DNA of 64,000 nt. It comes from Dehalococcoidia bacterium. GTDB lineage: Bacteria > Chloroflexota > Dehalococcoidia > GIF9 > AB-539-J10. The stretch's first letter is position 1, and every line of letters begins with the position of its first letter. The notes beneath the pieces are model-generated. The model ran no database searches. It was not told the DNA's origin and saw only the letters and a program-made list of their open reading frames with translations. Location: positions 36,831 to 100,830 of the forward strand of contig JBATUN010000034.1 in assembly GCA_049671165.1 (NCBI GenBank), given 5' to 3'. A program made the translations under genes and the position numbers. This document shows positions 4,445 to 58,946 of the stretch, one piece after another.

Positions 4445-5902
4445 TTAGCCCTTGATAACGCCCATAGGTATAGCCATAGCCACTTTTCTAGAAATACCAG
4501 CCTGGTGAACCACGTCTATAACTTCAGTGATATCTTTGTAAGCTTGGGATGCCTCCTCAGCTAGCGAAGAGATGTTTCCCGCCTTGATGGTAATACCTCT
4601 GCTCTCTAATTCTCGAACTACATCTCTACCCTGCATACTCCGCCTGGCAGCACCGCGACTTAACACTCTCCCGGCACCATGACAAGTGGAGCCAAAGCTC
4701 TCAGACATAGCCCTTTCAGTGCCCACGGCAACAAAAGAACAACGTCCCATGTCTCCGGGCACGAGCACAGGTTGCCCCACCTCCTTGTAGCGTCTGGGAG
4801 TATCCTTATGGCCCGCCGGAAAAGCTCTGGTAGCTCCTTTGCGGTGAACGCAAACCTTAAGCTTGTGACCATCTATTGTATGTTCTTCTATTTTGGCTAT
4901 GTTATGGGCGACATCATAAACCTGCCTCATGCCAAGTTTCTCAGGGCTTTTACCGAAAATTTTAGAAAAACTTTCTCTAACCCAGTGGGCAATGCACTGC
5001 CGGTTAACCCAAGCGTAGTTAGCAGCACATGCCATGGCAGCTAGATAATCTTGGCCTTCCGATGATTCTATGGGAGCGCAGGCGAGCTGCCGGTCGGGGA
5101 GCTTTATCCCGTACTTCGATACCGCCCCCTCCATGACACGCAGATGGTCAGTACATACTTGGTGACCGAAGCCGCGAGAGCCTGTGTGAATCAGGACTAG
5201 TATCTGACCTATCTCAGTGATGCCCATAATGCTAGCTATATGAGGATCGAATATCTCCTTCACCACCTGAATCTCAAGAAAATGATTTCCTGAGCCTAAT
5301 GTCCCGGCCTGAGGTGTGCCCCTTTTTGCCGCTTTATCGCTTATCTTGCTGGGATCGGCACCACTGAGACATCCACCTTCTTCAGTAACATCCAAATCTT
5401 CCTCGGAACCCAGGCCACGCTTCACTGCCCAACGAGCTCCCTCAACCATCAACTGGTTCATCTCTTTTTGACTTACCTTTATCTTCCCTTCAGAGCCAAG
5501 GCCTGATGGCACATTAAGGAATAATGCATTAATGAGCTCATTAATTCTGGGCCGCACTTCAGCTTCACTGAGACTGGTACCTAATAACCTTACACCGCAA
5601 TTAATATCGTAGCCCACTCCCCCCGGGGAAATTACGCCATCCTTAATGTCCATTGCCGCCACTCCGCCTATAGGGAAGCCATAGCCCCAGTGGATATCTG
5701 GCATGGCAAAGGAGTAACCTACTATACCGGGTAGGAACGCAACATTGGCGACTTGCTCTGGCGTTTGGTCCTCGCGTATAGATTCTAGCATTTCCTTACT
5801 GGCATATATTAGACCAGGAACCCTCATGCCAGTTCTGTAATTTTCGGGAATCTTCCAGCGATAATCGTCTATCTTAATAAGCTGTCCTTGCCATTGTGTC
5901 AT
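4445..5902 (-). CDS. rtcB: RNA-splicing ligase RtcB
   Basis: 485 aa carrying conserved RtcB motifs: MPDIHWGYGFPIGGV, GYDINCGVR, GSGNHFLE and HTGSRGFGHQ. Confidence 0.92.
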   Translation of the reverse strand: MTQWQGQLIKIDDYRWKIPENYRTGMRVPGLIYASKEMLESIREDQTPEQVANVAFLPGIVGYSFAMPDIHWGYGFPIGGVAAMDIKDGVISPGGVGYDINCGVRLLGTSLSEAEVRPRINELINALFLNVPSGLGSEGKIKVSQKEMNQLMVEGARWAVKRGLGSEEDLDVTEEGGCLSGADPSKISDKAAKRGTPQAGTLGSGNHFLEIQVVKEIFDPHIASIMGITEIGQILVLIHTGSRGFGHQVCTDHLRVMEGAVSKYGIKLPDRQLACAPIESSEGQDYLAAMACAANYAWVNRQCIAHWVRESFSKIFGKSPEKLGMRQVYDVAHNIAKIEEHTIDGHKLKVCVHRKGATRAFPAGHKDTPRRYKEVGQPVLVPGDMGRCSFVAVGTERAMSESFGSTCHGAGRVLSRGAARRSMQGRDVVRELESRGITIKAGNISSLAEEASQAYKDITEVIDVVHQAGISRKVAMAIPMGVIKG

Positions 5903-5913
5903 ATCATTAACTC

Positions 5914-6348
5914 CTAAATATCGAAAATTACCCGTGCCTTGTAGCCATCATTATTTTTGTCCAGCTTCAGCATATGATATGTGGCTGCTTTTACTCCTCT
6001 CTTTATCTTGTGTTTCATGGGATCAAAACCTTCCCCATGACAGGTAGCCTTAAGTTCATTGTGAGTCAGACTTTCAATATCGAACCGGTTGAATAGGATG
6101 TGTTTGGCATCAAAAAAATAAATGAGTTCGTTAAGCCATTCAACTAGCAAGCTGTCTCTCTCGTCGCTGCTTACTCTCAAATTGAGATGTGATTTCTCTT
6201 GAATGCTTTCAGGTTCAGTAATCAAACTGAACAAAGCTAGAGCAGCGTTGCAGAAAAGCTCCTCGATATCCGTCCCGTAGGCGATGATGCCCACGTCAGC
6301 AGTATGGTCAATTATTTCGAAAGCCCTTTTCATTCCTCTAGTGTCCAT
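5914..6348 (-). CDS. archease (RtcB activator)
   Basis: 144 aa with the N-terminal HTADVG motif. It lies immediately upstream of rtcB on the same strand. Confidence 0.85.
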   Translation of the reverse strand: MDTRGMKRAFEIIDHTADVGIIAYGTDIEELFCNAALALFSLITEPESIQEKSHLNLRVSSDERDSLLVEWLNELIYFFDAKHILFNRFDIESLTHNELKATCHGEGFDPMKHKIKRGVKAATYHMLKLDKNNDGYKARVIFDI

Positions 6349-6652: not shown

Positions 6653-7771
6653 ATGCCATCCCAGGATTACATGGAATGTGCTCTGTCTCTGGCCAGATTG
6701 GCTATGGGATATACCACTCCTAACCCAGCAGTTGGGGCGGTAGTTGTTAAGGATGGACTTGCTATCGGCATGGGATATACCCAACCTGTTGGCTGTGAAC
6801 ATGCTGAGGTTATGGCGCTCTGTCAAGCTGGGGATAAGGCACAAGGTGCTACCATGTATGTTACCTTGGAGCCTTGCCCTCATTACGGACATACGCCACC
6901 CTGCACTCAAGCCATAATTGATGCCGCTATTTCAGAAGTCCATATAGCCTTACTTGATCCTAACCCTGTGGTTTCTGGACTTGGCGTAAGGAGGCTAAAT
7001 GAGAAGGGCATCAAGACCCATATAGGTATGTGTCAGCAGGAAGCTTATGAGATAAACGAGGCTTATATTAAGCACATTACCACAGGCTTACCATTTGTCG
7101 TGGCCAAATTCGCTATGAGCCTTGACGGCAAGATTGCTACTAAGACTGGTGATTCTAAATGGATAACCAGGGAACAGACGAGAAAGTATGCACATGCCCT
7201 ACGACACACTGCTGATGCCATAATGGTGGGAGTGAACACTATTGTTGCGGATAATCCTCGCCTCACTGCTAAGGGCTGTGGTGGCAGAGGTGGCATGGGG
7301 AAAAAGCAGCCTCTACGTTTGGTCATCGACAGCAAAGGAAAAGTGCCGTTGAACTCTCGTATTTTTGAGCCACCAGGCGAAGTCTTACTCGCTGTGGTGG
7401 CACCTTTTGACTCCGTGAAGAAGGGAAAATTTGTAGATCTGGGTGCTGAGGTGGTGGAATTACCAGCCAGGGGAGATTCAGTAGATATAGTAGAGTTATT
7501 GAAGTTGTTGGGGGGGAGGGAGATTGTTACCGTCTTGGTGGAGGGGGGCGGTAAGCTTCTTGGTTCGCTTTTTGACCACCACTTAGTGGATAAGGTATTA
7601 GCTTTCATTTCGCCGATCATCATTGGGGGTTGCGAGGCTGTAAGTGTGGGGGGGAATGGCGTCGATAATATAGCTAAGGCTTTGCGCCTTACTCGAGTTG
7701 ACATCAAGACTTTCGGCGATGATATATTAGTTAGTGGATATTCCGAGAAACGGTTACCGCAGGAGGCGTAG
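6653..7771 (+). CDS. ribD: bifunctional riboflavin biosynthesis deaminase/reductase RibD
   Basis: 372 aa with the deaminase zinc motifs HAE and PCxxxxxxPPC, followed by a reductase domain. It is the first gene of the rib operon. Confidence 0.92.
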   Translation: MPSQDYMECALSLARLAMGYTTPNPAVGAVVVKDGLAIGMGYTQPVGCEHAEVMALCQAGDKAQGATMYVTLEPCPHYGHTPPCTQAIIDAAISEVHIALLDPNPVVSGLGVRRLNEKGIKTHIGMCQQEAYEINEAYIKHITTGLPFVVAKFAMSLDGKIATKTGDSKWITREQTRKYAHALRHTADAIMVGVNTIVADNPRLTAKGCGGRGGMGKKQPLRLVIDSKGKVPLNSRIFEPPGEVLLAVVAPFDSVKKGKFVDLGAEVVELPARGDSVDIVELLKLLGGREIVTVLVEGGGKLLGSLFDHHLVDKVLAFISPIIIGGCEAVSVGGNGVDNIAKALRLTRVDIKTFGDDILVSGYSEKRLPQEA

Positions 7772-7786
7772 GTTTAGGGGCAGAGT

Positions 7787-8428
7787 ATGTTCACAGGTAT
7801 AGTCGAGGAGATCGGCATAGTCGGGGAGACAAGCGGGGACCACCTGGCGTTCGAAGCCCGTAAGGTGCTCGAAGGAACGAAAGCGGGCGATAGCATAGCT
7901 GTCAATGGTGTTTGCCTGACTGTTGTCTCCTTGGAGAATCATGGCGTCGGTATTAACGTTATGCCCGAGACGCTACGTCGCACTAATCTCGGCAGACTTC
8001 ATCATAGCGACCAGGTAAATTTGGAGAGGGCACTGGTACTGGGGGGGCGCCTGGGTGGCCATTTGGTGTTGGGTCATGTAGATGACACGGGGGAAGTACT
8101 AGATGTAAGTAGCGAAGAAGGCGCGCGTATTGTGAGGATTTCGGCACCAACCGAACTAATGCCTTACATGGTGGATAAAGGCTTTATCGCTGTTGATGGT
8201 GTTAGTCTTACCATAGTAAACGTGGAGGATTTTTCTTTTGTTGTGTCTTTGGTAGGTTACACTATGGAAAATACCACATTAGGAAGGAAGACGCCTGGTG
8301 ACATAGTCAATTTGGAGGTAGACGTCATAGCTAAGTATGTCCAAAATCTTAAGGGGCAAAGAGGACAAAGTCTAAGCATTGAATTCCTTAGGGAATACGG
8401 ATTTGCAGGGGGAATAGATGCTGAGTAG
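7787..8428 (+). CDS. ribE: riboflavin synthase alpha chain
   Basis: 213 aa starting MFTGIVEE, with duplicated lumazine-binding repeats (VNGVCLTV and VDGVSLTI). Confidence 0.92.
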
Positions 8429-36494: not shown

Positions 36495-38069
36495 ATGAAC
36501 GTAGCTAAAGCGGACGAAATGAAAGATCTGGACAGGCGTGCTGGGGAAGAGTTTGGCATCTCGGAAGATCTTCTGATGGAAAACGCCGGTCAGGCAGTGT
36601 ACTTCGTCATATCACAGGAATTCGGTATAAAGGACAACAAATTCGTGGTCTTTTGTGGTGGTGGTAATAATGGTGGGGACGGGCTCGTTGTGGCTCGGAA
36701 GATTCACTCCAATGGGGGGGAAGTAAAGGTCTTTCTTCTCGACGATGAAGCCAAATTTAGAGGGGCAGCAAAAAAGAACTTTGAAATAGTGTCGAGGATG
36801 CCAATAGAGATGTCCAGGGTCAGCTCTATTGACTCCGTGGTACCTGAGCTCCTTGATTGTGATGCCATCGTGGATGCCATATTCGGCACGGGTCTTGCTC
36901 GCAAGGTCAGCGGTATATACAAAGGTATAATCCAACTGGTAAATGAAAGCCAAAGCACAGTATTCAGTGTGGATATTCCTTCAGGCATAAATGGCGATAC
37001 CGGAGAGGTGATGGGTGTGGCAGTAGAGGCAGATTGTACCGTGACATTTGGGCTTCCCAAGCTGGGGAATATGCTTTATCCCGGGTATGAGCACTGCGGA
37101 AAGCTGTATGTTTCACATATATCTTTCCCACCTGCCCTCTATAATTCCCACGACATAAAGGTGGCAATTAATAATCCTGTAGAGCTTCCCGAAAGGGCCA
37201 GAGATACTCATAAGGGCAGCTATGGAAAGGCTCTTTTTATTGCCGGCTCTGCTAGTTACCTCGGTGCGCCATACTTCTCCGCCCTCTCTTTTCTCAAAGC
37301 CGGAGGCGGGCTCTCCTACCTGGCAACACCCAAATCTATTTCGCCATTCCTGGCAAGCAAAGGAAGCGAGATTGTCTTTGTTCCTCAAAAAGAGACGCCT
37401 TCAGGAAGCATAGCACTGGAAAACAAAGATGACCTTTTGGAATTTTCCCAAACAATGGATATCGTGATTTTGGGTCCCGGTCTTTCTCTGGCCAGGGAGA
37501 CACAGGAGCTGGTGCGGAAGCTAGCCCCCAAAATCGACAAGCCTCTGCTCATAGACGGCGATGGAATTACTGCCATTGCTGGAGACTTGGGAAAGATAAG
37601 AAAGAGGGAAGCACCGACGATACTTACGCCTCATCTGGGAGAGATGTCCCGAATTACCAAAATGGAGATAGGCGAGATAAACAAAAACAAGATAGATGTT
37701 TTGCAACACACGGCACGGGAACTCAATGCCATAATTATCTTAAAGGGAGCCCATTCGCTAATAGGTTATCCCGATGGGACTGTCTTCATCAACGTAAGCG
37801 GCAACTCGGGCATGGCCACAGCCGGGAGCGGTGATGTCCTGACGGGAACAATGGCCGCCATGTACGGTTTGGGATTAACTCTCGAGGATGCAGTAAGGAT
37901 GGGCGTGTTTATCCACGGATTTTCCGGCGATGTTGCCGCCGTAGACAAAGGCGAGGACGGGATAACGGCGCAGGACATACTGGACTGTCTCCCCGAAACC
38001 GTGAAGCTTTATAGAGATAACTTTGCCGAAATTTCGGAAAATCTCTATGAAAGTATCTTCGTGGTATGA
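36495..38069 (+). CDS. nnr: bifunctional NAD(P)H-hydrate epimerase / ADP-dependent dehydratase
   Basis: The track ORF starts at 36456. I prefer the ATG at 36495 after AAGGGGGG. The YjeF_N motif CGGGNNGGDG and the C-terminal kinase-like GSGDVLTG are present. Confidence 0.88.
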   Translation: MNVAKADEMKDLDRRAGEEFGISEDLLMENAGQAVYFVISQEFGIKDNKFVVFCGGGNNGGDGLVVARKIHSNGGEVKVFLLDDEAKFRGAAKKNFEIVSRMPIEMSRVSSIDSVVPELLDCDAIVDAIFGTGLARKVSGIYKGIIQLVNESQSTVFSVDIPSGINGDTGEVMGVAVEADCTVTFGLPKLGNMLYPGYEHCGKLYVSHISFPPALYNSHDIKVAINNPVELPERARDTHKGSYGKALFIAGSASYLGAPYFSALSFLKAGGGLSYLATPKSISPFLASKGSEIVFVPQKETPSGSIALENKDDLLEFSQTMDIVILGPGLSLARETQELVRKLAPKIDKPLLIDGDGITAIAGDLGKIRKREAPTILTPHLGEMSRITKMEIGEINKNKIDVLQHTARELNAIIILKGAHSLIGYPDGTVFINVSGNSGMATAGSGDVLTGTMAAMYGLGLTLEDAVRMGVFIHGFSGDVAAVDKGEDGITAQDILDCLPETVKLYRDNFAEISENLYESIFVV

Positions 38070-52360: not shown

Positions 52361-52807
52361 CTATTTGTTCCTGCTTTCCAGCGAGATGGTGACCGGCCCA
52401 TCATTATAGATTTCCACCAGCATATGCTCCTGGAAAAGCCCTGTTTCTACCTTGAGCCCTGTGGTGCCGACTTGCTCCACAAAAAACTCATATAATTCCT
52501 CAGCCAGGTCCGGCGGGGCTGCCTCGGTGAAGCTGGGTCGTCTCCCCTTGCGTGAATCAGCCAGGAGGGTGAACTGGCTTACAACTAAAATATCTCCCCT
52601 TGTTTCCAGCGCTGAGAGGGCAAACTTGCTTGCCTCATCGGCAAAAATACGCAGGTTGACCACTTTGTTTGCCAGGTAGCTGGCATCTTCCTTCGAATCA
52701 CCTTGAGCCACGCCGAGAAAAACCACCAACCCCCGGCCAATCTCGCCTACTATCTTGTCATTCACACTCACTGAGGCTCGGGAAACCCGCTGCACTAATG
52801 CTTTCAT
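52361..52807 (-). CDS. dtd: D-aminoacyl-tRNA deacylase
   Basis: 148 aa, MKALVQRVSRASVSV..., with an SQFTL motif. Confidence 0.9.
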   Translation of the reverse strand: MKALVQRVSRASVSVNDKIVGEIGRGLVVFLGVAQGDSKEDASYLANKVVNLRIFADEASKFALSALETRGDILVVSQFTLLADSRKGRRPSFTEAAPPDLAEELYEFFVEQVGTTGLKVETGLFQEHMLVEIYNDGPVTISLESRNK

Positions 52808-52877
52808 CTCGATTTAGCTTATATAATTATGCCACCTTCTCAGATTTATTTCCGCTTGTGTCCAGCTTCTCGTGAGT

Positions 52878-52936
52878 ATTCTGGTGACATAACACCTGAT
52901 TTGTAGTAGGCCGAATTGGGATGGTGTCCCTAGAAT
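52878..52936 (+). repeat. structured ~59-nt array repeat, copy R1
   Basis: ATTCTGGTGACATAACACCTGATTTGTAGTAGGCCGAATTGGGATGGTGTCCCTAGAAT. Confidence 0.85.
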
Positions 52937-52973
52937 TTGCCAGGTTAACTTTTGGTAGCTTGTTTATATAGCC

Positions 52974-53663
52974 CTAGGCAACAATACTAAGAACAACAGT
53001 TAGCACTAGCAAAATAAATGCTATCACCGAACCTGCTGTAATTATCCACCCCTGATTTCTGTCCCACCGACTGGTGATTTGGAACTCAACCTTATCATAT
53101 GCCTGTTTAACAATACTGCCGTATTTGTATGTAAAAACAAGGTCTACAGAGTAATAACCAGGTTGAGCCGTGCTCAAGGTTCTTAGAGAAATGGAAATTG
53201 GGTAACGACCATCTGTTTGTGTCTCAGCTACGTTTATAGGCAAGTCTGATTGTGTTCTCTGTGGTGGGGGAGGTACTGGAGCAGGCAAGAAGTTGCCATT
53301 ATTCAGATTAAGCATGACGCCATTTTCATGCAACTTCACACGGAATAACTCGCCACTGATTATGGGGAAAGATATATCTCTGCCGTCTATTTTTTCATAA
53401 TATACCCCAGCACACCCAACACAATCCCCTTCTTTTGAGGAATCAATGACATTAGGCGATGACCACAAACAGATAAGCTTGTTTCCATCTGGAATACCTG
53501 TTCCTGTTAGATGTATATCAATTACAATATCGTCCCCGCCCTTAATTCTGTGACTTCTTGCACGAGCAACGATGGAGTAAATCGGTTCTAAATTCTGAAC
53601 TAGAGGTAATATTTCATTATTGTATTTAATCATGTCGTCTTTCGTGAATCCCTTTTTTACCAT
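52974..53663 (-). CDS. hypothetical tail-anchored protein (two beta-rich halves joined by a PVPPPP linker; C-terminal TM helix)
   Basis: The track ORF is 52974..53684. I prefer the ATG at 53663 after GGAGGTG. The gene is AT-rich and no family was recognised. Confidence 0.55.
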   Translation of the reverse strand: MVKKGFTKDDMIKYNNEILPLVQNLEPIYSIVARARSHRIKGGDDIVIDIHLTGTGIPDGNKLICLWSSPNVIDSSKEGDCVGCAGVYYEKIDGRDISFPIISGELFRVKLHENGVMLNLNNGNFLPAPVPPPPQRTQSDLPINVAETQTDGRYPISISLRTLSTAQPGYYSVDLVFTYKYGSIVKQAYDKVEFQITSRWDRNQGWIITAGSVIAFILLVLTVVLSIVA

Positions 53664-53777
53664 AGACACCTCCACGTGCGACAAGCTTTTGTTTAAGGTT
53701 TATTCTAGTATTAAAAGATGGGAAAATAAAGAGGGTTAGCGGAATTCTCAAAATTTACCTCTGTAGAATGCCAGATT

Positions 53778-53836
53778 ATCCTGGGGAGATAATACCTAAT
53801 TGGTAGTGGGCCTGATTGATATGGTGTCCCTGGAAT
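53778..53836 (+). repeat. structured ~59-nt array repeat, copy R2
   Basis: ATCCTGGGGAGATAATACCTAATTGGTAGTGGGCCTGATTGATATGGTGTCCCTGGAAT. Confidence 0.85.
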
Positions 53837-53887
53837 TCTGGTGGGGGCGACAATCGGGGGGCACTGCGCCCCAGACAGAAGGCGGAC

Positions 53888-54889
53888 ATGGGCGCAGTAA
53901 GCATACGGTTGACTTCGATTGACCGCAACACTATGATTGTGGTTGTGGGCAGAGCTAAGTTGCCTGTGCATCCCGGCATAAACTTGGGAGACTTTGGAGT
54001 GGACGCCTCTTTACGGCAGCGAGGTTTTGTAATTGCAGCCCGCGGCGACTATGCACAAACCATTGCTCCAGCTGACATGCAACCAATCAAGATGCTAAGT
54101 AGTGGAGCATGCATGCCTGATTGGAATGATGATTTTTACAGAAGTATGTCCAAGATATCACAGCGCAAGATGTTTAGGTTCATGTTGACTCGTCCGCGGG
54201 GTGTTTCAGAAGTGGAGCTGAATAATGAACTCCACCAAGAAAGCACCACTATACACAAGAGAGTTCTGTACCTTGAGAAGACTGGAGTTATCCGAAAGTG
54301 TGCTGAGAACCGATGGTGTTTGTCCCAGGCAGTTGACAACTTCGGCCCAACATATGAACGTTATGTGAAATCTATTTTTGAGAGGGAATTCCATTGGTCT
54401 ACTGAATGGGGCATAGAACTCGAGCATTTTAAATACGGAGACTTCGATGTTCTCGCAACAATTGCATCCACACTCTGCTATGTGGAATGCAAAACCTCCC
54501 GACCAGAAGATGTAGGCGAAATGCAACTCAGGTATTTCTTACAGCGCAGCCAAGACTTAGCCCCCGAAATCGCCATTCTCCTCTTAGACACGGAGGACCC
54601 ACTAGACAAACCTCTTGAACAACTAGAGAATATTCTGACGGTGATTAAGCAGAAAGCAATGAAGGAACCAAACTATAAGCCAGAAAAACCGTTTTTCAGA
54701 GAATCGGCCAGATTTGCTGGAGTCTATTTCGGTTGTCGCAGAATATTCGTAACCAATGCCAGGCCAAACGTCGTGCACAATCTGCGATTATGTCTACAAT
54801 TCTACTGGACATGGCTGAAGTTCCAGTCGTTTTTGGGTGGCCCCCAATACAACTACGTTACCGAAGAGGTGTTTCCGTTCCCGCTCTGA
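53888..54889 (+). CDS. winged-helix DNA-binding domain fused to a PD-(D/E)xK nuclease-like domain; start uncertain
   Basis: The track ORF starts at 53816, inside repeat R2. The first ATG after the repeat is 53888. The wHTH-like segment is MFRFMLTRPRGVSEVELNNELHQESTTIHKRVLYLEKTGVI. The nuclease-like motif is E..(GIELEH)..GDFDVLA..x12..YVECK. Confidence 0.55.
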   Translation: MGAVSIRLTSIDRNTMIVVVGRAKLPVHPGINLGDFGVDASLRQRGFVIAARGDYAQTIAPADMQPIKMLSSGACMPDWNDDFYRSMSKISQRKMFRFMLTRPRGVSEVELNNELHQESTTIHKRVLYLEKTGVIRKCAENRWCLSQAVDNFGPTYERYVKSIFEREFHWSTEWGIELEHFKYGDFDVLATIASTLCYVECKTSRPEDVGEMQLRYFLQRSQDLAPEIAILLLDTEDPLDKPLEQLENILTVIKQKAMKEPNYKPEKPFFRESARFAGVYFGCRRIFVTNARPNVVHNLRLCLQFYWTWLKFQSFLGGPQYNYVTEEVFPFPL

Positions 54890-54905
54890 ACTATCGCTGC
54901 CAGGT

Positions 54906-54964
54906 ATTCTGGGGACATAATACCTGATTTATAGTAGGCCTAATTGATATGGTCTCCCTGGAGC
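54906..54964 (+). repeat. structured ~59-nt array repeat, copy R3
   Basis: ATTCTGGGGACATAATACCTGATTTATAGTAGGCCTAATTGATATGGTCTCCCTGGAGC. It begins 17 nt after the stop at 54889. Confidence 0.85.
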
Positions 54965-55027
54965 TTGCGGTATTGACTGTTCTTCTTAATTCTCATATGA
55001 TGTATCAAAAGGAGAGGAGGTGAAGCT

Positions 55028-55468
55028 ATGCCATTTTGTCCAAAATGTGGAAAAGAAGTAAGCGAGGGTGATTCGTTTTGCCCTGGGTGTGGACAGAGGC
55101 TTAAGGTTGGGGTAACGCCGGAGAATACATCGAGACAAGGTGAATTAGCCACAGTACCAGAGGAAGTTAAGGGGTGGAGCTGGGGAGCATTCGCCTTAAC
55201 CTGGATATGGGGAGTCTTTAATAGTGTTTGGATATCGCTACTTTGTCTTATTCCCTTTTTTAATATTGTGTGGGCTTTCGTTCTTGGCGTAAAGGGAAAT
55301 GAGTGGGCATGGCGGAATAAGAAATGGGACAGCATCGAGCAGTTCAAGAGTACGCAGAGGGGCTGGAATATTGCCGGCATAGTAGTATTTGCCATATCAA
55401 TAGTAGTTGTACCAGTTGTAATCATCTTTGCAGTTGTTGTTCCTTTAGCCCTGTATGGTTCTATATGA
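55028..55468 (+). CDS. zinc-ribbon domain membrane protein
   Basis: 146 aa with N-terminal CPKCG...CPGCG followed by Trp-rich TM segments. A strong GGAGAGGAGGTG RBS is present. Confidence 0.75.
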   Translation: MPFCPKCGKEVSEGDSFCPGCGQRLKVGVTPENTSRQGELATVPEEVKGWSWGAFALTWIWGVFNSVWISLLCLIPFFNIVWAFVLGVKGNEWAWRNKKWDSIEQFKSTQRGWNIAGIVVFAISIVVVPVVIIFAVVVPLALYGSI

Positions 55469-55489
55469 AGTCTCATTAGCATCTATCCT

Positions 55490-55548
55490 ATTCTGGGGAC
55501 ATAATACCTGATTTATGCTAGGCCTAATTGGTATGGTGTCCCTGACGG
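55490..55548 (+). repeat. structured ~59-nt array repeat, copy R4
   Basis: ATTCTGGGGACATAATACCTGATTTATGCTAGGCCTAATTGGTATGGTGTCCCTGACGG. It is identical to R3 over the first 27 nt and begins 22 nt after the stop at 55468. Confidence 0.85.
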
Positions 55549-55731
55549 ATTCAGGACATCCCGGCACCCCTCAGAAAACCTATGGATGATGCCGAATATC
55601 ATCCAGGGGACTTCTTACCGGCTTTCTCAAAAGATTAGCTTTGGTGTTGGACGGGCGGAAGGATTTCTCCGCCCTTGTTATAATTCTTCCTGTCAACAGC
55701 TATAATCACGAGATGGAGGGGGGTGCCACAC

Positions 55732-57369
55732 ATGAAAAAATCCAAGAGCAAAGACGAGGTGAAGGCAGGGAAGAACTCTAAATCACGGGATAGACAAGTT
55801 AATCAGGAGCCGATGCGCGCTGACCTCAAGGAGGTGATAGGGAGGCATTCCCGGGGCCTCGACGAGCAACGCCCCGAGGCGGTGGCGCGACGGCGGAAGA
55901 CAAACCAGCGCATGGTCCGTGAAAACATAAAGGACCTCTGCGACGGGCACTTCATGGAATACGGTCCTCTGGCGGTCGCCGCCCAGCGCCAGCGTCGAAC
56001 CATGAAGGACCTCACGAGCAGAACCCCGGCCGATGGGGTGATTGCCGGCATCGGACAGGTCAACGGATCGTTGTTTGGAGAAGACAAAGCCCGCTGCATG
56101 ATAATAGCCTACGATTATACGGTTCTGGCCGGTACCCAGGGATTTTTCGGCCACAAGAAAAAGGACCGTATGCTGAGACTGGCGCACGAACAGCGTCTGC
56201 CCGTGGTGCTTTTTGCCGAAGGCGGCGGTGGGAGGCCGGGTGACGTCGATGCGGATGGTGTGGTGGTGGCGGGTCTGGACCTGGCGACCTTTGCCATGTT
56301 TGCAAGATTGAGCGGAAAAATTCCGGTCGTAGGCATCGTATCGGGCCGCTGTTTTGCCGGCAACGCTGTCTTGCTGGGATGTTGTGATGTGATTATCGCT
56401 GCCCCAAATGCCAATATCGGGATGGCCGGCCCGGTTATGATCGAAGGCGGGGGACTGGGTGCTTTCAAACCGGAGGATATCGGACCCATGGATGTGCAAA
56501 CGAATAACGGCGTTGTGGACATTGCCGTGGCTGATGACACAGAAGCGGTGGCAGTCGCCAGGAAATATCTTTCATATTTTCAGGGAGCGATTCCCCAATG
56601 GGAGGCTGCCGACCAGCACCTTCTTCGCCGCATGATTCCTGAGCAACGAAGATACGTTTATGACGTGCGGGCTGTCATAAAAACGATAGCCGATACGGAC
56701 TCATTTCTTGAGTTAAGACCCAAGTTCGGCCCGGAGATGATTACGGGTCTTATACGCATCGAGGGCAAGCCTTTTGGCGTCATAGCCAATAACTGCAAAC
56801 ACCAGGCCGGGGCTATTGAAGCGGAAGGCGCGGACAAGGCAGCACGCCTCATGCAGCTTTGCAATGCCCATGGTCTGCCCATGGTGTCCCTGGTAGATAC
56901 GCCGGGATTCATGGTGGGGCCGGAGGTCGAACGCCGCGCTCAGGTCCGCCACGTTTGCCGTATGTTTGTGGTCGGCTCGCATTTAATGGTGCCTTTCTTT
57001 ACAGTCTTTTTGCGCAGGGGATACGGACTGGGAGCGCAGGCTATGGCCAAGGGAGGCTTCCACGAGCCTTTTTTTGCGATTGCCTGGCCAACCGGGGAAT
57101 TTGGCGGCATGGGATTGGAGGGCGCAGTCAGGGCTGGTTTCAGGAAAGAACTTGAATCAGTGAAAGACCCGCAGGAACGTGAAGCCCTATACGAGAAACT
57201 GGTTGCCCTGGCATATGAGAGAGGGAAAGCCATCAATATGGCCTCTTACCTCGAAATCGACGCGGTTATTGACCCGGCGGATACACGCAGATGGATTGTG
57301 GAAGGCTTGAAAGCCGTTCCCGCTGAACGCACCGAGAGAACAGGTCATGATTTTGTCGATACCTGGTAG
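55732..57369 (+). CDS. acyl-CoA carboxylase carboxyltransferase (beta) subunit family protein
   Basis: The track ORF starts at 55723. I prefer the ATG at 55732 after GGAGGGGGG. It has duplicated crotonase-like carboxyltransferase halves (AYDYTVLAGTQG...; DTPGFMVGPEVE...). The gene is visibly GC-rich compared with its neighbours. Confidence 0.85.
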   Translation: MKKSKSKDEVKAGKNSKSRDRQVNQEPMRADLKEVIGRHSRGLDEQRPEAVARRRKTNQRMVRENIKDLCDGHFMEYGPLAVAAQRQRRTMKDLTSRTPADGVIAGIGQVNGSLFGEDKARCMIIAYDYTVLAGTQGFFGHKKKDRMLRLAHEQRLPVVLFAEGGGGRPGDVDADGVVVAGLDLATFAMFARLSGKIPVVGIVSGRCFAGNAVLLGCCDVIIAAPNANIGMAGPVMIEGGGLGAFKPEDIGPMDVQTNNGVVDIAVADDTEAVAVARKYLSYFQGAIPQWEAADQHLLRRMIPEQRRYVYDVRAVIKTIADTDSFLELRPKFGPEMITGLIRIEGKPFGVIANNCKHQAGAIEAEGADKAARLMQLCNAHGLPMVSLVDTPGFMVGPEVERRAQVRHVCRMFVVGSHLMVPFFTVFLRRGYGLGAQAMAKGGFHEPFFAIAWPTGEFGGMGLEGAVRAGFRKELESVKDPQEREALYEKLVALAYERGKAINMASYLEIDAVIDPADTRRWIVEGLKAVPAERTERTGHDFVDTW

Positions 57370-57682
57370 ATTGATATTTCTTGCATAGCCAAATAATGGC
57401 TGCCCCCCACTCTCCGCTCCTCAGAGTATGGTCTATCGTAAACTTAAGGGTCCCGGCTGGGCTGACCGGGACCCCGACGCGGAAAGGAGGTTGAAGTTTG
57501 AACACAATAGCAGAGGAAACCTCGCTACGGTGCAGTTATATGCTAGCACTACCGTCATGAACCATCCGTGAAGTCTCCATGAACGCTAGATGAATTCTCC
57601 CCTATTCCCGAAGACTCAATACCGGTCAGCTGGCAAAAGGCTCTGGGACCCCGGGATTGGGCGACGGACTGGCTGTCGCATT

Positions 57683-57743
57683 ACTTACGGGGACAGGATA
57701 CTTGATTCGTAGCAGGCCTAACTGGTATGGTATCCACGAAATT
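57683..57743 (+). repeat. structured array repeat, diverged copy R5
   Basis: ACTTACGGGGACAGGATACTTGATTCGTAGCAGGCCTAACTGGTATGGTATCCACGAAAT. Confidence 0.65.
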
Positions 57744-57840
57744 TGCTTGTTTGGATTTGTTCAGGATTCTAAGAGAGGGCAGAACCTTTTTTTAGCCAAC
57801 AGGGCGATTTTACCAGTCATTCGGAGCATAATACTTCCAT

Positions 57841-58086
57841 CTACTTCCATGACCTATCCAACCACATCCCTTCAATTTCTCCACTTCTCACATCAGCGAT
57901 GAAAGACCCTATCTTTCTAATACCACCACTGGCAAAGCCACCAGAATGCTCATACTCAAAGCTTACTTTCCATTTTCCTTCAGTCTTTTGTGCGTATGTA
58001 ATTCGCAACTCGCGATAATCGATAACATTGGATATATCTAGAACTTTCTGAGCTATTCTTTTTAATTCTCCTACTTGTACGGCCAT
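57841..58086 (-). CDS. hypothetical small protein
   Basis: 81-aa ORF. No family recognised. Confidence 0.45.
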   Translation of the reverse strand: MAVQVGELKRIAQKVLDISNVIDYRELRITYAQKTEGKWKVSFEYEHSGGFASGGIRKIGSFIADVRSGEIEGMWLDRSWK

Positions 58087-58177
58087 AGTCTCTAACTACC
58101 CCCAGCGACGATTTATTATCCATCTTACCACAAAATTCATTGTCATCATACATATTTTTGTTCCCTTTTGAACAGAT

Positions 58178-58235
58178 ATTCCGGGAAATAATACCTAGTT
58201 TATAGCAGGCCTAGTTGACATGATGTGCCTAGAAT
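58178..58235 (+). repeat. structured array repeat, diverged copy R6
   Basis: ATTCCGGGAAATAATACCTAGTTTATAGCAGGCCTAGTTGACATGATGTGCCTAGAAT. Confidence 0.65.
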
Positions 58236-58531
58236 TGCGCGGCAAGTATCTTGCGCTTGCTCTGACAATGTCCGTATCAAGATAGCAGCCCCAGGCATCA
58301 GGCGAGGAAGGATATGACAATACAATCTGGGATTACGCAAGTTGCTAAAAAGCGGGAAGGGTTCATTAGGTGGCTCTCTCTCGTATGTGCAGTACGACCT
58401 CTACTATCTGACAGCAGAATCGTTTCGTGCCGCGATACTACCATTACAAGCTTCCAAGTAGAGGGTAGATAATGGACATTATCTCTGGGTATGTTGAGCG
58501 CAAATGTCAGGTAAAGTTAAGATAAGTCATG

Positions 58532-58560
58532 TTGACAAAGCCAGTGGAAAGAAATATAAT
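58532..58560 (+). promoter_or_regulatory. perfect-consensus sigma70-type promoter TTGACA-N17-TATAAT
   Basis: The -35 is at 58532-58537, the spacer is exactly 17 nt, and the -10 is at 58555-58560. Confidence 0.65.
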
Positions 58561-58566
58561 TCGTGG

Positions 58567-58739
58567 TTTCTGCTGCAAGGGATTTTCGGGATTTCTGCGA
58601 CTAATATAAGCAAGGAGCAGCACAAAAACGACATAGTATCAAAAAATCAGGGGGCATTGACCTGCCATCTGTAATTGGTCACCTGGATGGCAGCGAGCTA
58701 ATGGTGAAACCGGCCTAAACGGTCGGTTTTTTTGTTTTT
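58567..58739 (+). ncRNA. candidate ~170-nt small RNA or terminated leader of unknown class
   Basis: It is bounded by the consensus promoter and an intrinsic terminator. Internal hairpin CTGCCATC...GATGGCAG. The ends are complementary (GGTTTC near the 5' end, GAAACC near the 3' end). There is no convincing ORF. Confidence 0.35.
58708..58739 (+). terminator. Rho-independent terminator
   Basis: An 8-bp stem AACCGGCC/GGTCGGTT (one G-T pair) with loop TAAAC, followed by TTTTTTTGTTTTT. Confidence 0.7.
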
Positions 58740-58946
58740 GAAAGGCGCTGAGGGCGCTGCGCACGTGAGAATGAAGGGGAGGTCGCTTGATAAGTGAGGT
58801 GGCATTGAACTGTCACCCGTACATGAGCAGCTGGATGACTGGGAGCCAGTAAGGGAAGTGACTGCAGAGAGGTCGGTTCTGTTTGTGAGAGATTCAAGTC
58901 AAAAACAAGAGGTTATGGATCACCAAGTAACCGAAGCGGGAATGCT

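Follow-up and report, generated by a model that had tools for sequence, protein, structure and literature searches.

The interval between dtd and glmS on contig JBATUN010000034.1 of a Dehalococcoidia bacterium (GCA_049671165.1) raises the question of what kind of element divides it into single-gene units. In the stretch analysed here (contig positions 36,831 to 100,830, 64,000 nt, hereafter the window), repeat search and alignment found six plus-strand copies of a 64-bp imperfect palindrome at 52875-58237, which flank five gene units (Table 1). We consider the locus, with a probability of about 0.6, to be an array of five mobile gene cassettes with a 64-bp recombination site at each junction, similar in function to an integron or to a cluster of attC sites lacking an integrase (CALIN), whose recombinase would be encoded elsewhere.

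Within the window the copies are confined to 5.4 kb, and the remaining 58.6 kb holds none. A degenerate core pattern with up to three mismatches gave six matches against zero expected from shuffles, and a covariance model built from the six copies and run with filters off retrieved only these six in the 64 kb, at 66-86 bits; neither pattern nor model detected a further copy between R6 and glmS. An earlier reading of the window without database searches (the sequence-only reading) had described six same-orientation copies of a ~59-nt repeat and no clear one elsewhere in the window. This description stands except for the length, as the conserved unit defined by at least ~600 relatives comprises 64 nt. 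Alignment likewise confirms that R3 does not differ from R4 in the first 27 nt and that R5 and R6 are the most diverged copies, the terminal inverted repeats and a central AGGCCT are present, the map of open reading frames (ORFs) places every copy between genes, and the sharp changes in GC content between units are real, with 38-43% in unit 1 against 52-60% in unit 4.

The repeat belongs to a large family. Besides the window we analysed 234 loci (labelled L, with unit families labelled F), of which those from the genome collection are 8-kb tiles; all figures on copy number and clustering in the genome and metagenome collections are lower bounds from the matches listed, and statements on recombination derive from comparative patterns. 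A core-pattern scan of species-representative genomes returned at least 114 tiles, almost all from metagenome-assembled genomes (MAGs) of Dehalococcoidia and from several contigs per MAG, in which a profile search identified at least 310 copies and no locus with copies on both strands. At least 120 further contigs, mostly from sediment or the subsurface, with at least 292 copies were found in a metagenome scan, two of them with mixed orientation. Combined, at least ~600 copies are present in at least ~230 Dehalococcoidia MAG and metagenome stretches, and ~230 of 232 loci are strictly co-oriented. The 64-nt family consensus reads GGTATTCTGGGGACATAATACCTGATTTGTAGTAGGCCTAATTGGTATGGTGTCCCTGGAATTC, and conservation falls to background exactly at both of its ends.

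Copies are separated by a median of 1063 nt, co-oriented runs reach at least eight copies per 8-kb tile and at least 16 copies over three adjacent tiles of one contig, and single MAGs carry at least 20-27 copies over many contigs. The sequence-only reading had set a cassette array against a generic repeat scattered at similar density throughout the genome. The repeat is clustered, not only in the window: contigs of 0.4-0.7 Mb have one or two positive tiles each among the matches listed. A scan of viral contigs and a BLAST search of plasmids yielded no match, and the literature that we searched, also with the literal sequence, contains no description of this repeat or of integron-like arrays in Dehalococcoidia.

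The core of the repeat is ~86% identical between copies, compared to ~60-70% for the adjacent non-coding flanks of shared units. Sites of one array are no more alike (identity 0.862) than sites of different loci (0.857), and site identity per MAG ranges from 0.74 to 0.94, with 0.76 for the copies of the window. We read this pattern as purifying selection around one consensus in combination with recent private decay, and it suggests that some genomes maintain their sites while others, including that of the window, let them decay. Because the window copies have decayed further than the average copy of the family, the array of the window may have ceased to be active. Repeat-bearing contigs also occur in bins named WOR-3, Stahlbacteria, Brocadiaceae, Desulfobacteraceae and Bathyarchaeia (L012, L031, L034, L055, L107, L109). 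One of these, the end of a 96-kb "WOR-3" contig (L012), matches the dtd-side flank of the window, and mis-binning therefore seems likelier than cross-phylum transfer.

The units between the repeats provide insight into the mobility of this system. Twenty-seven inter-repeat unit families are common to different MAGs at 88-97% nucleotide identity, typically from repeat to repeat, and their order and neighbours differ (e.g., F13-F23-F3-F0-F4 in L014, F4-F3-F13 in L049 and F22-F13-F18 in L050). Three units of the window recur elsewhere in other combinations. Homologues of the zinc-ribbon unit 3 stand next to other neighbours in L078, L007, L033, L091 and L237, homologues of the carboxyltransferase unit 4 (~91% identical) are found in other contexts in L096, L106, L047 and L041, and those of the 81-aa unit 5 in L078, L103, L038 and L106; units 1 and 2 have no homologous unit among the other repeat-bearing loci. 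In L078 (F25-F5-F16) units 3 and 5 are parted by a single site, and the window (units 1 and 2, then F5-F15-F16) has in addition exactly the carboxyltransferase unit and one site. The identity of the flanks of shared units is at background level outside the site and high inside it. A permutation test on 35 and 34 families places the onset of linkage with the adjacent unit at positions 1-3 on the left (z = 3-6) and at positions 65-68 on the right (z = 4-8).

The arrays lie at recurrent positions of the chromosome. Twenty-seven loci have the dtd-side flank of the window, most of them as far as the first copy of the repeat, followed by different units, and Dtd is the commonest array-flanking protein (22 loci), always upstream and divergent. 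Arrays are headed by dtd, mutS2-like or arg genes. On long contigs, complete arrays are framed by core genes, with Dtd-Fur at one end and an acyl-CoA dehydrogenase/DUF169 cluster at the other, and complete arrays framed by core genes contain no recombinase. Pfam confirmed FUR beside Dtd on the array flank of the window as well; the glmS flank was found in no other repeat-bearing locus. A differing gene content among relatives, with gains and losses at repeat boundaries, had been named as an expectation of the cassette interpretation, and this is what the loci next to dtd display. Look-ups of the Dtd and GlmS proteins of the window returned no recorded entry. More than 120 distinct Dtd proteins with 90-95% identity to that of the window occur in public metagenomes, most of them on contigs of 1-5 kb. 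So many close Dtd proteins on short contigs point to a very abundant, finely diversified population in which assemblies break beside the arrays.

Modularity extends to the level of the single gene. Each of the five window units contains one main ORF, and 123 of the 171 units analysed in the family are dominated by one ORF that spans half of their length or more, with little non-coding DNA at the edges. Relative to the repeat, 73 unit genes lie on the minus and 50 on the plus strand, and some repeat copies sit between divergent gene starts. Non-coding DNA within units amounts to ~75-100 nt before starts and ~35-60 nt after stops. Genes on either strand with such upstream regions suggest that the units are self-expressing.

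Variation among the sites indicates where one unit ends and the next begins. The ACGGAT end seen in R4 precedes the carboxyltransferase unit in four contexts (window, L106, L096, L047) with differing upstream neighbours. Derived bases at positions 60-64 are common to sites upstream of the same unit at a rate of 0.38, compared to 0.01-0.10 at positions 42-59, and to 0.06 for sites downstream of the same unit. The ACGGAT variant and the derived bases at positions 60-64 therefore place the unit boundary between positions 59 and 60 (CCCTG/GAATTC). With a boundary at the right edge, the terminal six bases of each site move together with the unit that follows, in the manner of attC. The crossover itself probably falls at the same point.

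At least 14 sites consist of the right half only (GCCTGATTGGTATGGTGTCCCTGGAATTC), joined to unrelated left sequence with a break near positions 32-37 (L037:3908-3938, L050:3322-3356, L075, L082, L004, L181, L183, L132, L192, L201 and others), and left-half-only sites are almost absent. Given a crossover at the right edge, the right-half sites could be attI-like partners, which would differ from their integron counterparts in keeping the whole right half (~28 bp) instead of a 7-bp core. Some right-half sites are orthologous between genomes, e.g., those beside a mutS2-like gene in L050, L029 and L181.

The palindromic nature of the repeat invites the question of whether a hairpin is under selection. 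As RNA, the family consensus folds with -25.1 kcal/mol on the plus and -17.3 kcal/mol on the minus strand, the former being stronger because of two conserved G-U pairs; as DNA it folds with -9.9 (plus) and -9.0 kcal/mol (minus) into three helices with internal loops (z about -3.5). Among the window copies folded as single-stranded DNA (ssDNA), only the minus strand of R4 clearly beats shuffles (z = -3.5; plus strand z = -2.0). In 150-217 copies, 94.1% of paired cells can pair compared to 94.0% after shuffling, and the covariation score of 0.104 (shuffled 0.101) was reached by 72 of 500 shuffles. Compensatory changes are rare among the copies, and the pairing-preserving changes that had been noticed among the window copies are anecdotal.

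The sites of one unit family carry, in place of the left outer arm, the right end in direct copy (GGTGTCCCTGGAATTCGAGAA...; L001, L016 with two copies, L040, L052, L167, L171, L197, L228) and hence cannot form the outer stem, and those of another family lack the left outer arm (L129, L143, L150, L170, L198, L222). We interpret the lack of covariation together with the dispensable left arm as an indication that the dyad symmetry is a property of the conserved sequence, as in protein-binding recombination sites. A hairpin as selected structure, as the sequence-only reading had proposed, is not supported. In some copies a small extra hairpin of varying sequence is inserted in the right arm, always at one point near position 44-47 (TCCTTCACnnnnGTGAAGGA in L061, L070, L053 and L017; CCCCGATTAAATCGGGG in L008 and L075).

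Taken as a mobile cassette array, the locus may work as follows. A recombinase acting in trans, most likely a tyrosine recombinase, would recombine two directly repeated sites between positions 59 and 60, near their right edge, and release a circle of one gene unit and one site. The circle could then re-insert at a resident site of the same array or of a different one, also in other Dehalococcoidia. The units would carry their own expression signals and could hence be inserted with their gene in either orientation, and the region upstream of dtd would be one of several conserved chromosomal landing places. We infer site-specific recombination, the class of the enzyme and the circular intermediate from sequence comparisons. 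A wider proposal, for which we would give slightly less than even odds, is that Dehalococcoidia possess a separately evolved gene-capture system parallel to the integron. It would employ a 64-bp double-stranded, sequence-specific site, self-expressing cassettes, many arrays at fixed places and a dedicated distant recombinase that moves units within and between species.

Several observations weigh against a cassette array of this kind. No recombinase is linked to the repeats in ~1.4 Mb around at least ~600 copies, and an excised circle, an empty site or a recombination junction has not been observed directly. The genes of the units lie in both orientations, whereas integron cassettes are co-oriented. 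The right-half sites break at positions 32-37 and not between 59 and 60, which leaves room for a central crossover. Finally, polymorphisms in positions 4-59 are linked to neither neighbouring unit. We attribute the latter preferably to recent private decay, but frequent gene conversion or homologous exchange inside the repeat would fit as well. A first signal for a central crossover in the polymorphism linkage disappeared when families were weighted equally, and was absent in near-identical unit pairs and in the permutation test; on the position of the crossover, the derived bases and the variant hexamers alone were informative.

The search for the recombinase employed tblastn, phmmer and jackhmmer on six-frame translations of the window and the 234 loci, with approximate sequences of IntI1, XerD, gamma-delta resolvase, Hin and IS608 TnpA as queries, whose matches are leads only; the L081 integrase was added in jackhmmer. 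With the approximate IntI1 and XerD queries, no IntI-like gene was found in the window or in the ~1.4 Mb around the copies. For a gene of the REP-associated tyrosine transposase (RAYT) or IS200 type, the approximate query gave one weak match only (E = 0.02), ~7 kb from any copy. Neither the only clear integrase, a phage-type gene with an excisionase-like neighbour (L081:5896-7086), 3.9 kb from a solitary copy, nor an integrase-like fragment in L113, ~5 kb from a solitary copy, is linked to an array. In L007, a tRNA-Leu gene and a small Xer-like tyrosine recombinase form a pair (7330-8000), with the recombinase at 7596-8000, ~300 nt past the last site of a dtd array. We regard it as an ordinary tRNA-island integrase, as it adjoins tRNA-Leu and its homologues on L235 and L236 are on contigs without the repeat; all four homologues in the database are partial, and the one upstream region that was read, that on L235, also contains tRNA-Leu, so that the pair recurs there (L235:1-976). 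The top 45 recurrent flanking and internal protein clusters (assessed by inspection, with Pfam for unclear cases) are cargo or core genes and include no recombinase.

To our knowledge, the integron is the one well-understood system in which single genes are stored up and reordered as cassettes, and it is defined by IntI and structurally read attC sites. These sites carry the outer cores R'' (RYYYAAC) and R' (GTTRRRY) and conserve structure over sequence, and the cassette ORFs are mostly promoterless and co-oriented. The known systems nearest to the array discussed here are integron cassette arrays, above all CALINs and the homogeneous attC arrays of sedentary chromosomal integrons, and much of it follows the same logic: at least two co-oriented, imperfectly palindromic sites of ~60 nt within a few kb, one gene per unit, units reordered between genomes, a unit boundary inside the site with the last six bases moving with the next unit like G/TTRRRY at attC, a consensus that folds as ssDNA, no neighbouring integrase, and a cargo rich in toxin-antitoxin-like and small uncharacterised genes. 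The locus could therefore be a true integron array, a CALIN with a homogeneous, lineage-specific attC variant recognised as folded ssDNA by a distant IntI-type integrase, the more so as CALINs without a nearby intI are common. Integrons with canonical attC sites have been reported in Chloroflexi (PMC4889954). We nevertheless consider this unlikely. The RYYYAAC/GTTRRRY cores are absent from the six copies and the consensus on either strand, the ends of which read GGTATTC and GGAATTC; the sites conserve primary sequence and not structure across many species; whole cassette families do without the left outer arm needed for an R-box-like stem; the unit genes have mixed orientation and seemingly their own promoters; many arrays exist per genome; and no intI/attI head of a complete integron was found near the at least ~600 copies. 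Because attC cores and an IntI are lacking, sequence rather than structure is conserved and gene orientation is mixed, we do not count the array as a member of the integrons. Motif check and homology search thus agree with the sequence-only reading on the missing cores and the missing integrase in the window. Of its integron- or CALIN-like array the logic persists, in the clustering and in the change of content at repeats, and the connection to integrons is one of logic only.

A selfish repeat of the REP/REPIN (repetitive extragenic palindrome) or MITE (miniature inverted-repeat transposable element) kind, residing in accessory islands and shuffled by homologous recombination between copies, e.g., in uptaken DNA, would dispense with a dedicated recombinase altogether. 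The size and palindromic architecture of the repeat are those of a REPIN, and REP/REPIN-RAYT systems likewise comprise a short intergenic palindrome in many copies per genome with the enzyme encoded elsewhere. The lack of a linked recombinase, internal polymorphisms unlinked to both flanks, as if exchange could fall anywhere in the repeat, and a site identity within arrays not above that between arrays are further points in its favour. However, REPINs are dispersed genome-wide, in either orientation, among core genes and do not mark the limits of exchangeable gene units, and the clustering and the strict co-orientation of ~230 of 232 loci are not expected of random insertion. The terminal inverted repeats resemble those of a MITE, but identical flanking k-mers are not in excess at any boundary or k; the lack of target-site duplications and the uniform orientation within loci argue against a MITE. 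A repeat of 64 bp at ~86% identity is moreover a poor RecA substrate, and no RAYT or IS200-type gene was found in the window or the 234 loci. This explanation also fails to account for the flanking copies of new genes, the recurrent right-half sites and the boundary at the right edge, and we regard it as improbable. An element acting on RNA or transcription (terminator, insulator, processing site or stabilising stem-loop), with modularity as a secondary effect, is far less probable still. It is favoured by the stronger fold of the plus-strand RNA and by the start of R3 and R4 ~20 nt after stop codons, but genes on either strand (73:50) and copies between divergent starts contradict it, no terminator-like site overlaps any repeat, Rfam yields no match at gathering score or at E <= 1, covariation is lacking, and the reordering of units between genomes is left unexplained. 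Both elements, the MITE/REP-like one and the RNA-level 3' one, had been offered as fallbacks by the sequence-only reading, and both find little support.

Two other known systems are comparable to a cassette array with a recombinase in trans. In the pdif modules of Acinetobacter plasmids, which are bounded by XerC/XerD sites, as in other elements that use Xer recombinases, short conserved sites likewise delimit modules and the recombinase is not encoded alongside; pdif sites have 28 bp (11-6-11) in alternating orientation, whereas the sites here have 64 bp and are co-oriented and chromosomal. By eye, no convincing dif-like core is present in the 64-bp site in comparison with the dif sequences of E. 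coli and B. subtilis. Tycheposons of Prochlorococcus form arrays of cargo modules at tRNA genes, in which part of a tRNA gene serves as the repeat and members that carry an integrase are easy to find. Here, too, small cargo modules accumulate at a fixed hot spot between repeated attachment sequences, many of them without a recombinase, but the palindrome stands free of any tRNA gene, and none of the members in the searched loci carries an integrase. Resemblance to a tRNA-derived repeat, to clustered regularly interspaced short palindromic repeats (CRISPR), to a dif-like core or to the E. coli REP (GTAGGCCTGAT) was, upon inspection, absent or too short to mean anything.

The cargo of the arrays is typical of gene cassettes. 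Proteins that recur within arrays or beside them include a methyltransferase, nucleotidyltransferase/HEPN, GNAT, alpha/beta hydrolase, radical SAM, an RpoD-like sigma factor, DUF169, heliorhodopsin, acVLRF1, P-type ATPases and small proteins without assigned function, in addition to Fic-like and MazF-like cargo, labels that were judged by eye from the sequences. The commonest unit family, F0, is ~355 nt long, lacks an ORF of at least 50 aa and occupies 15 places, sometimes two in one array (among them L059:1794-2148 and 5869-6222, L105, L039, L027, L064, L070 and L013). A promoter-like TTGACA...TAGTAT is present in it, a hairpin and T-run form its end, and Rfam has no match; with these signals it has the appearance of a small RNA gene that moves as a cassette. 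A heliorhodopsin gene (L193:5074-5913, Pfam 9e-97) and six related ORFs are located in or beside arrays, and this light-sensing membrane protein may move as a cassette.

Among the window units, Pfam searches returned zero matches for the ORFs of units 1, 2 and 5. The label "wHTH-nuclease-like", which the sequence-only reading had given to the unit 2 ORF, is therefore unverified. Upstream of glmS, and downstream of the last site, the window contains a perfect sigma-70-type promoter (TTGACA-17-TATAAT), followed by a c-di-GMP-II riboswitch aptamer, a terminator-like hairpin with a T-run that overlaps the 3' end of the aptamer, and a second, weak aptamer-like match under the gathering score (Table 1). 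Such a c-di-GMP-II leader, possibly a tandem one, is unusual for glmS.

Table 1. Features of the dtd-glmS interval, in window coordinates. Covariance-model scores are given in bits.
Feature	Coordinates	Strand	Remarks
dtd	52361..52807	-	Pfam Tyr_Deacylase; conserved chromosomal anchor, upstream of the array
R1	52875..52938	+	79.7 bits; 68 nt from the start codon of the divergent dtd, on its upstream side
Unit 1	52939..53774	-	ORF 52974-53663/53684, ~230 aa; C-terminal hydrophobic tail; AT-rich DNA
R2	53775..53838	+	77.2 bits
Unit 2	53839..54902	+	single ORF ~53879-54889, ~336 aa
R3	54903..54966	+	85.6 bits; window copy nearest the family consensus; starts 17 nt past the preceding stop codon
Unit 3	54967..55486	+	zinc-ribbon membrane protein 55028-55468, 146 aa; Pfam Zn_Ribbon_1
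R4	55487..55550	+	last six bases ACGGAT, not GAATTC; starts 22 nt past the preceding stop codon
Unit 4	55551..57680	+	carboxyltransferase 55732-57369; Pfam Carboxyl_trans, 9e-74; GC-rich DNA
R5	57681..57744	+	69.1 bits; diverged
Unit 5	57745..58174	-	81-aa ORF 57841-58086
R6	58175..58237	+	66.6 bits; most diverged, 1-nt deletion; final site of the array
Sigma-70-type promoter	58532..58560		upstream of glmS
c-di-GMP-II aptamer	58641..58724		62.4 bits; between promoter and glmS
Terminator-like hairpin and T-run	58706..58730		overlaps the 3' end of the aptamer
Second aptamer-like match	58789..58872		25.9 bits
glmS	starts 58947		

If the array is what we consider it to be, a second cassette system with integron logic and a different, sequence-conserved site would be new, and cassette-based gene capture would have arisen more than once. 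Its hosts belong to an abundant, mostly uncultured lineage of sediments and aquifers with small genomes, and standard tools keyed to attC and intI are not expected to detect these arrays. The 64-bp consensus provides a handle for finding the recombinase by co-occurrence, for amplification of cassette pools out of environmental DNA and possibly for the design of a new tool for site-specific recombination. The cargo, with heliorhodopsin, carboxyltransferase, toxin-antitoxin-like genes and a common non-coding unit, suggests ecological relevance, and the exchange of such cassettes would partly explain the fine-scale diversity and the assembly fragmentation of these populations.

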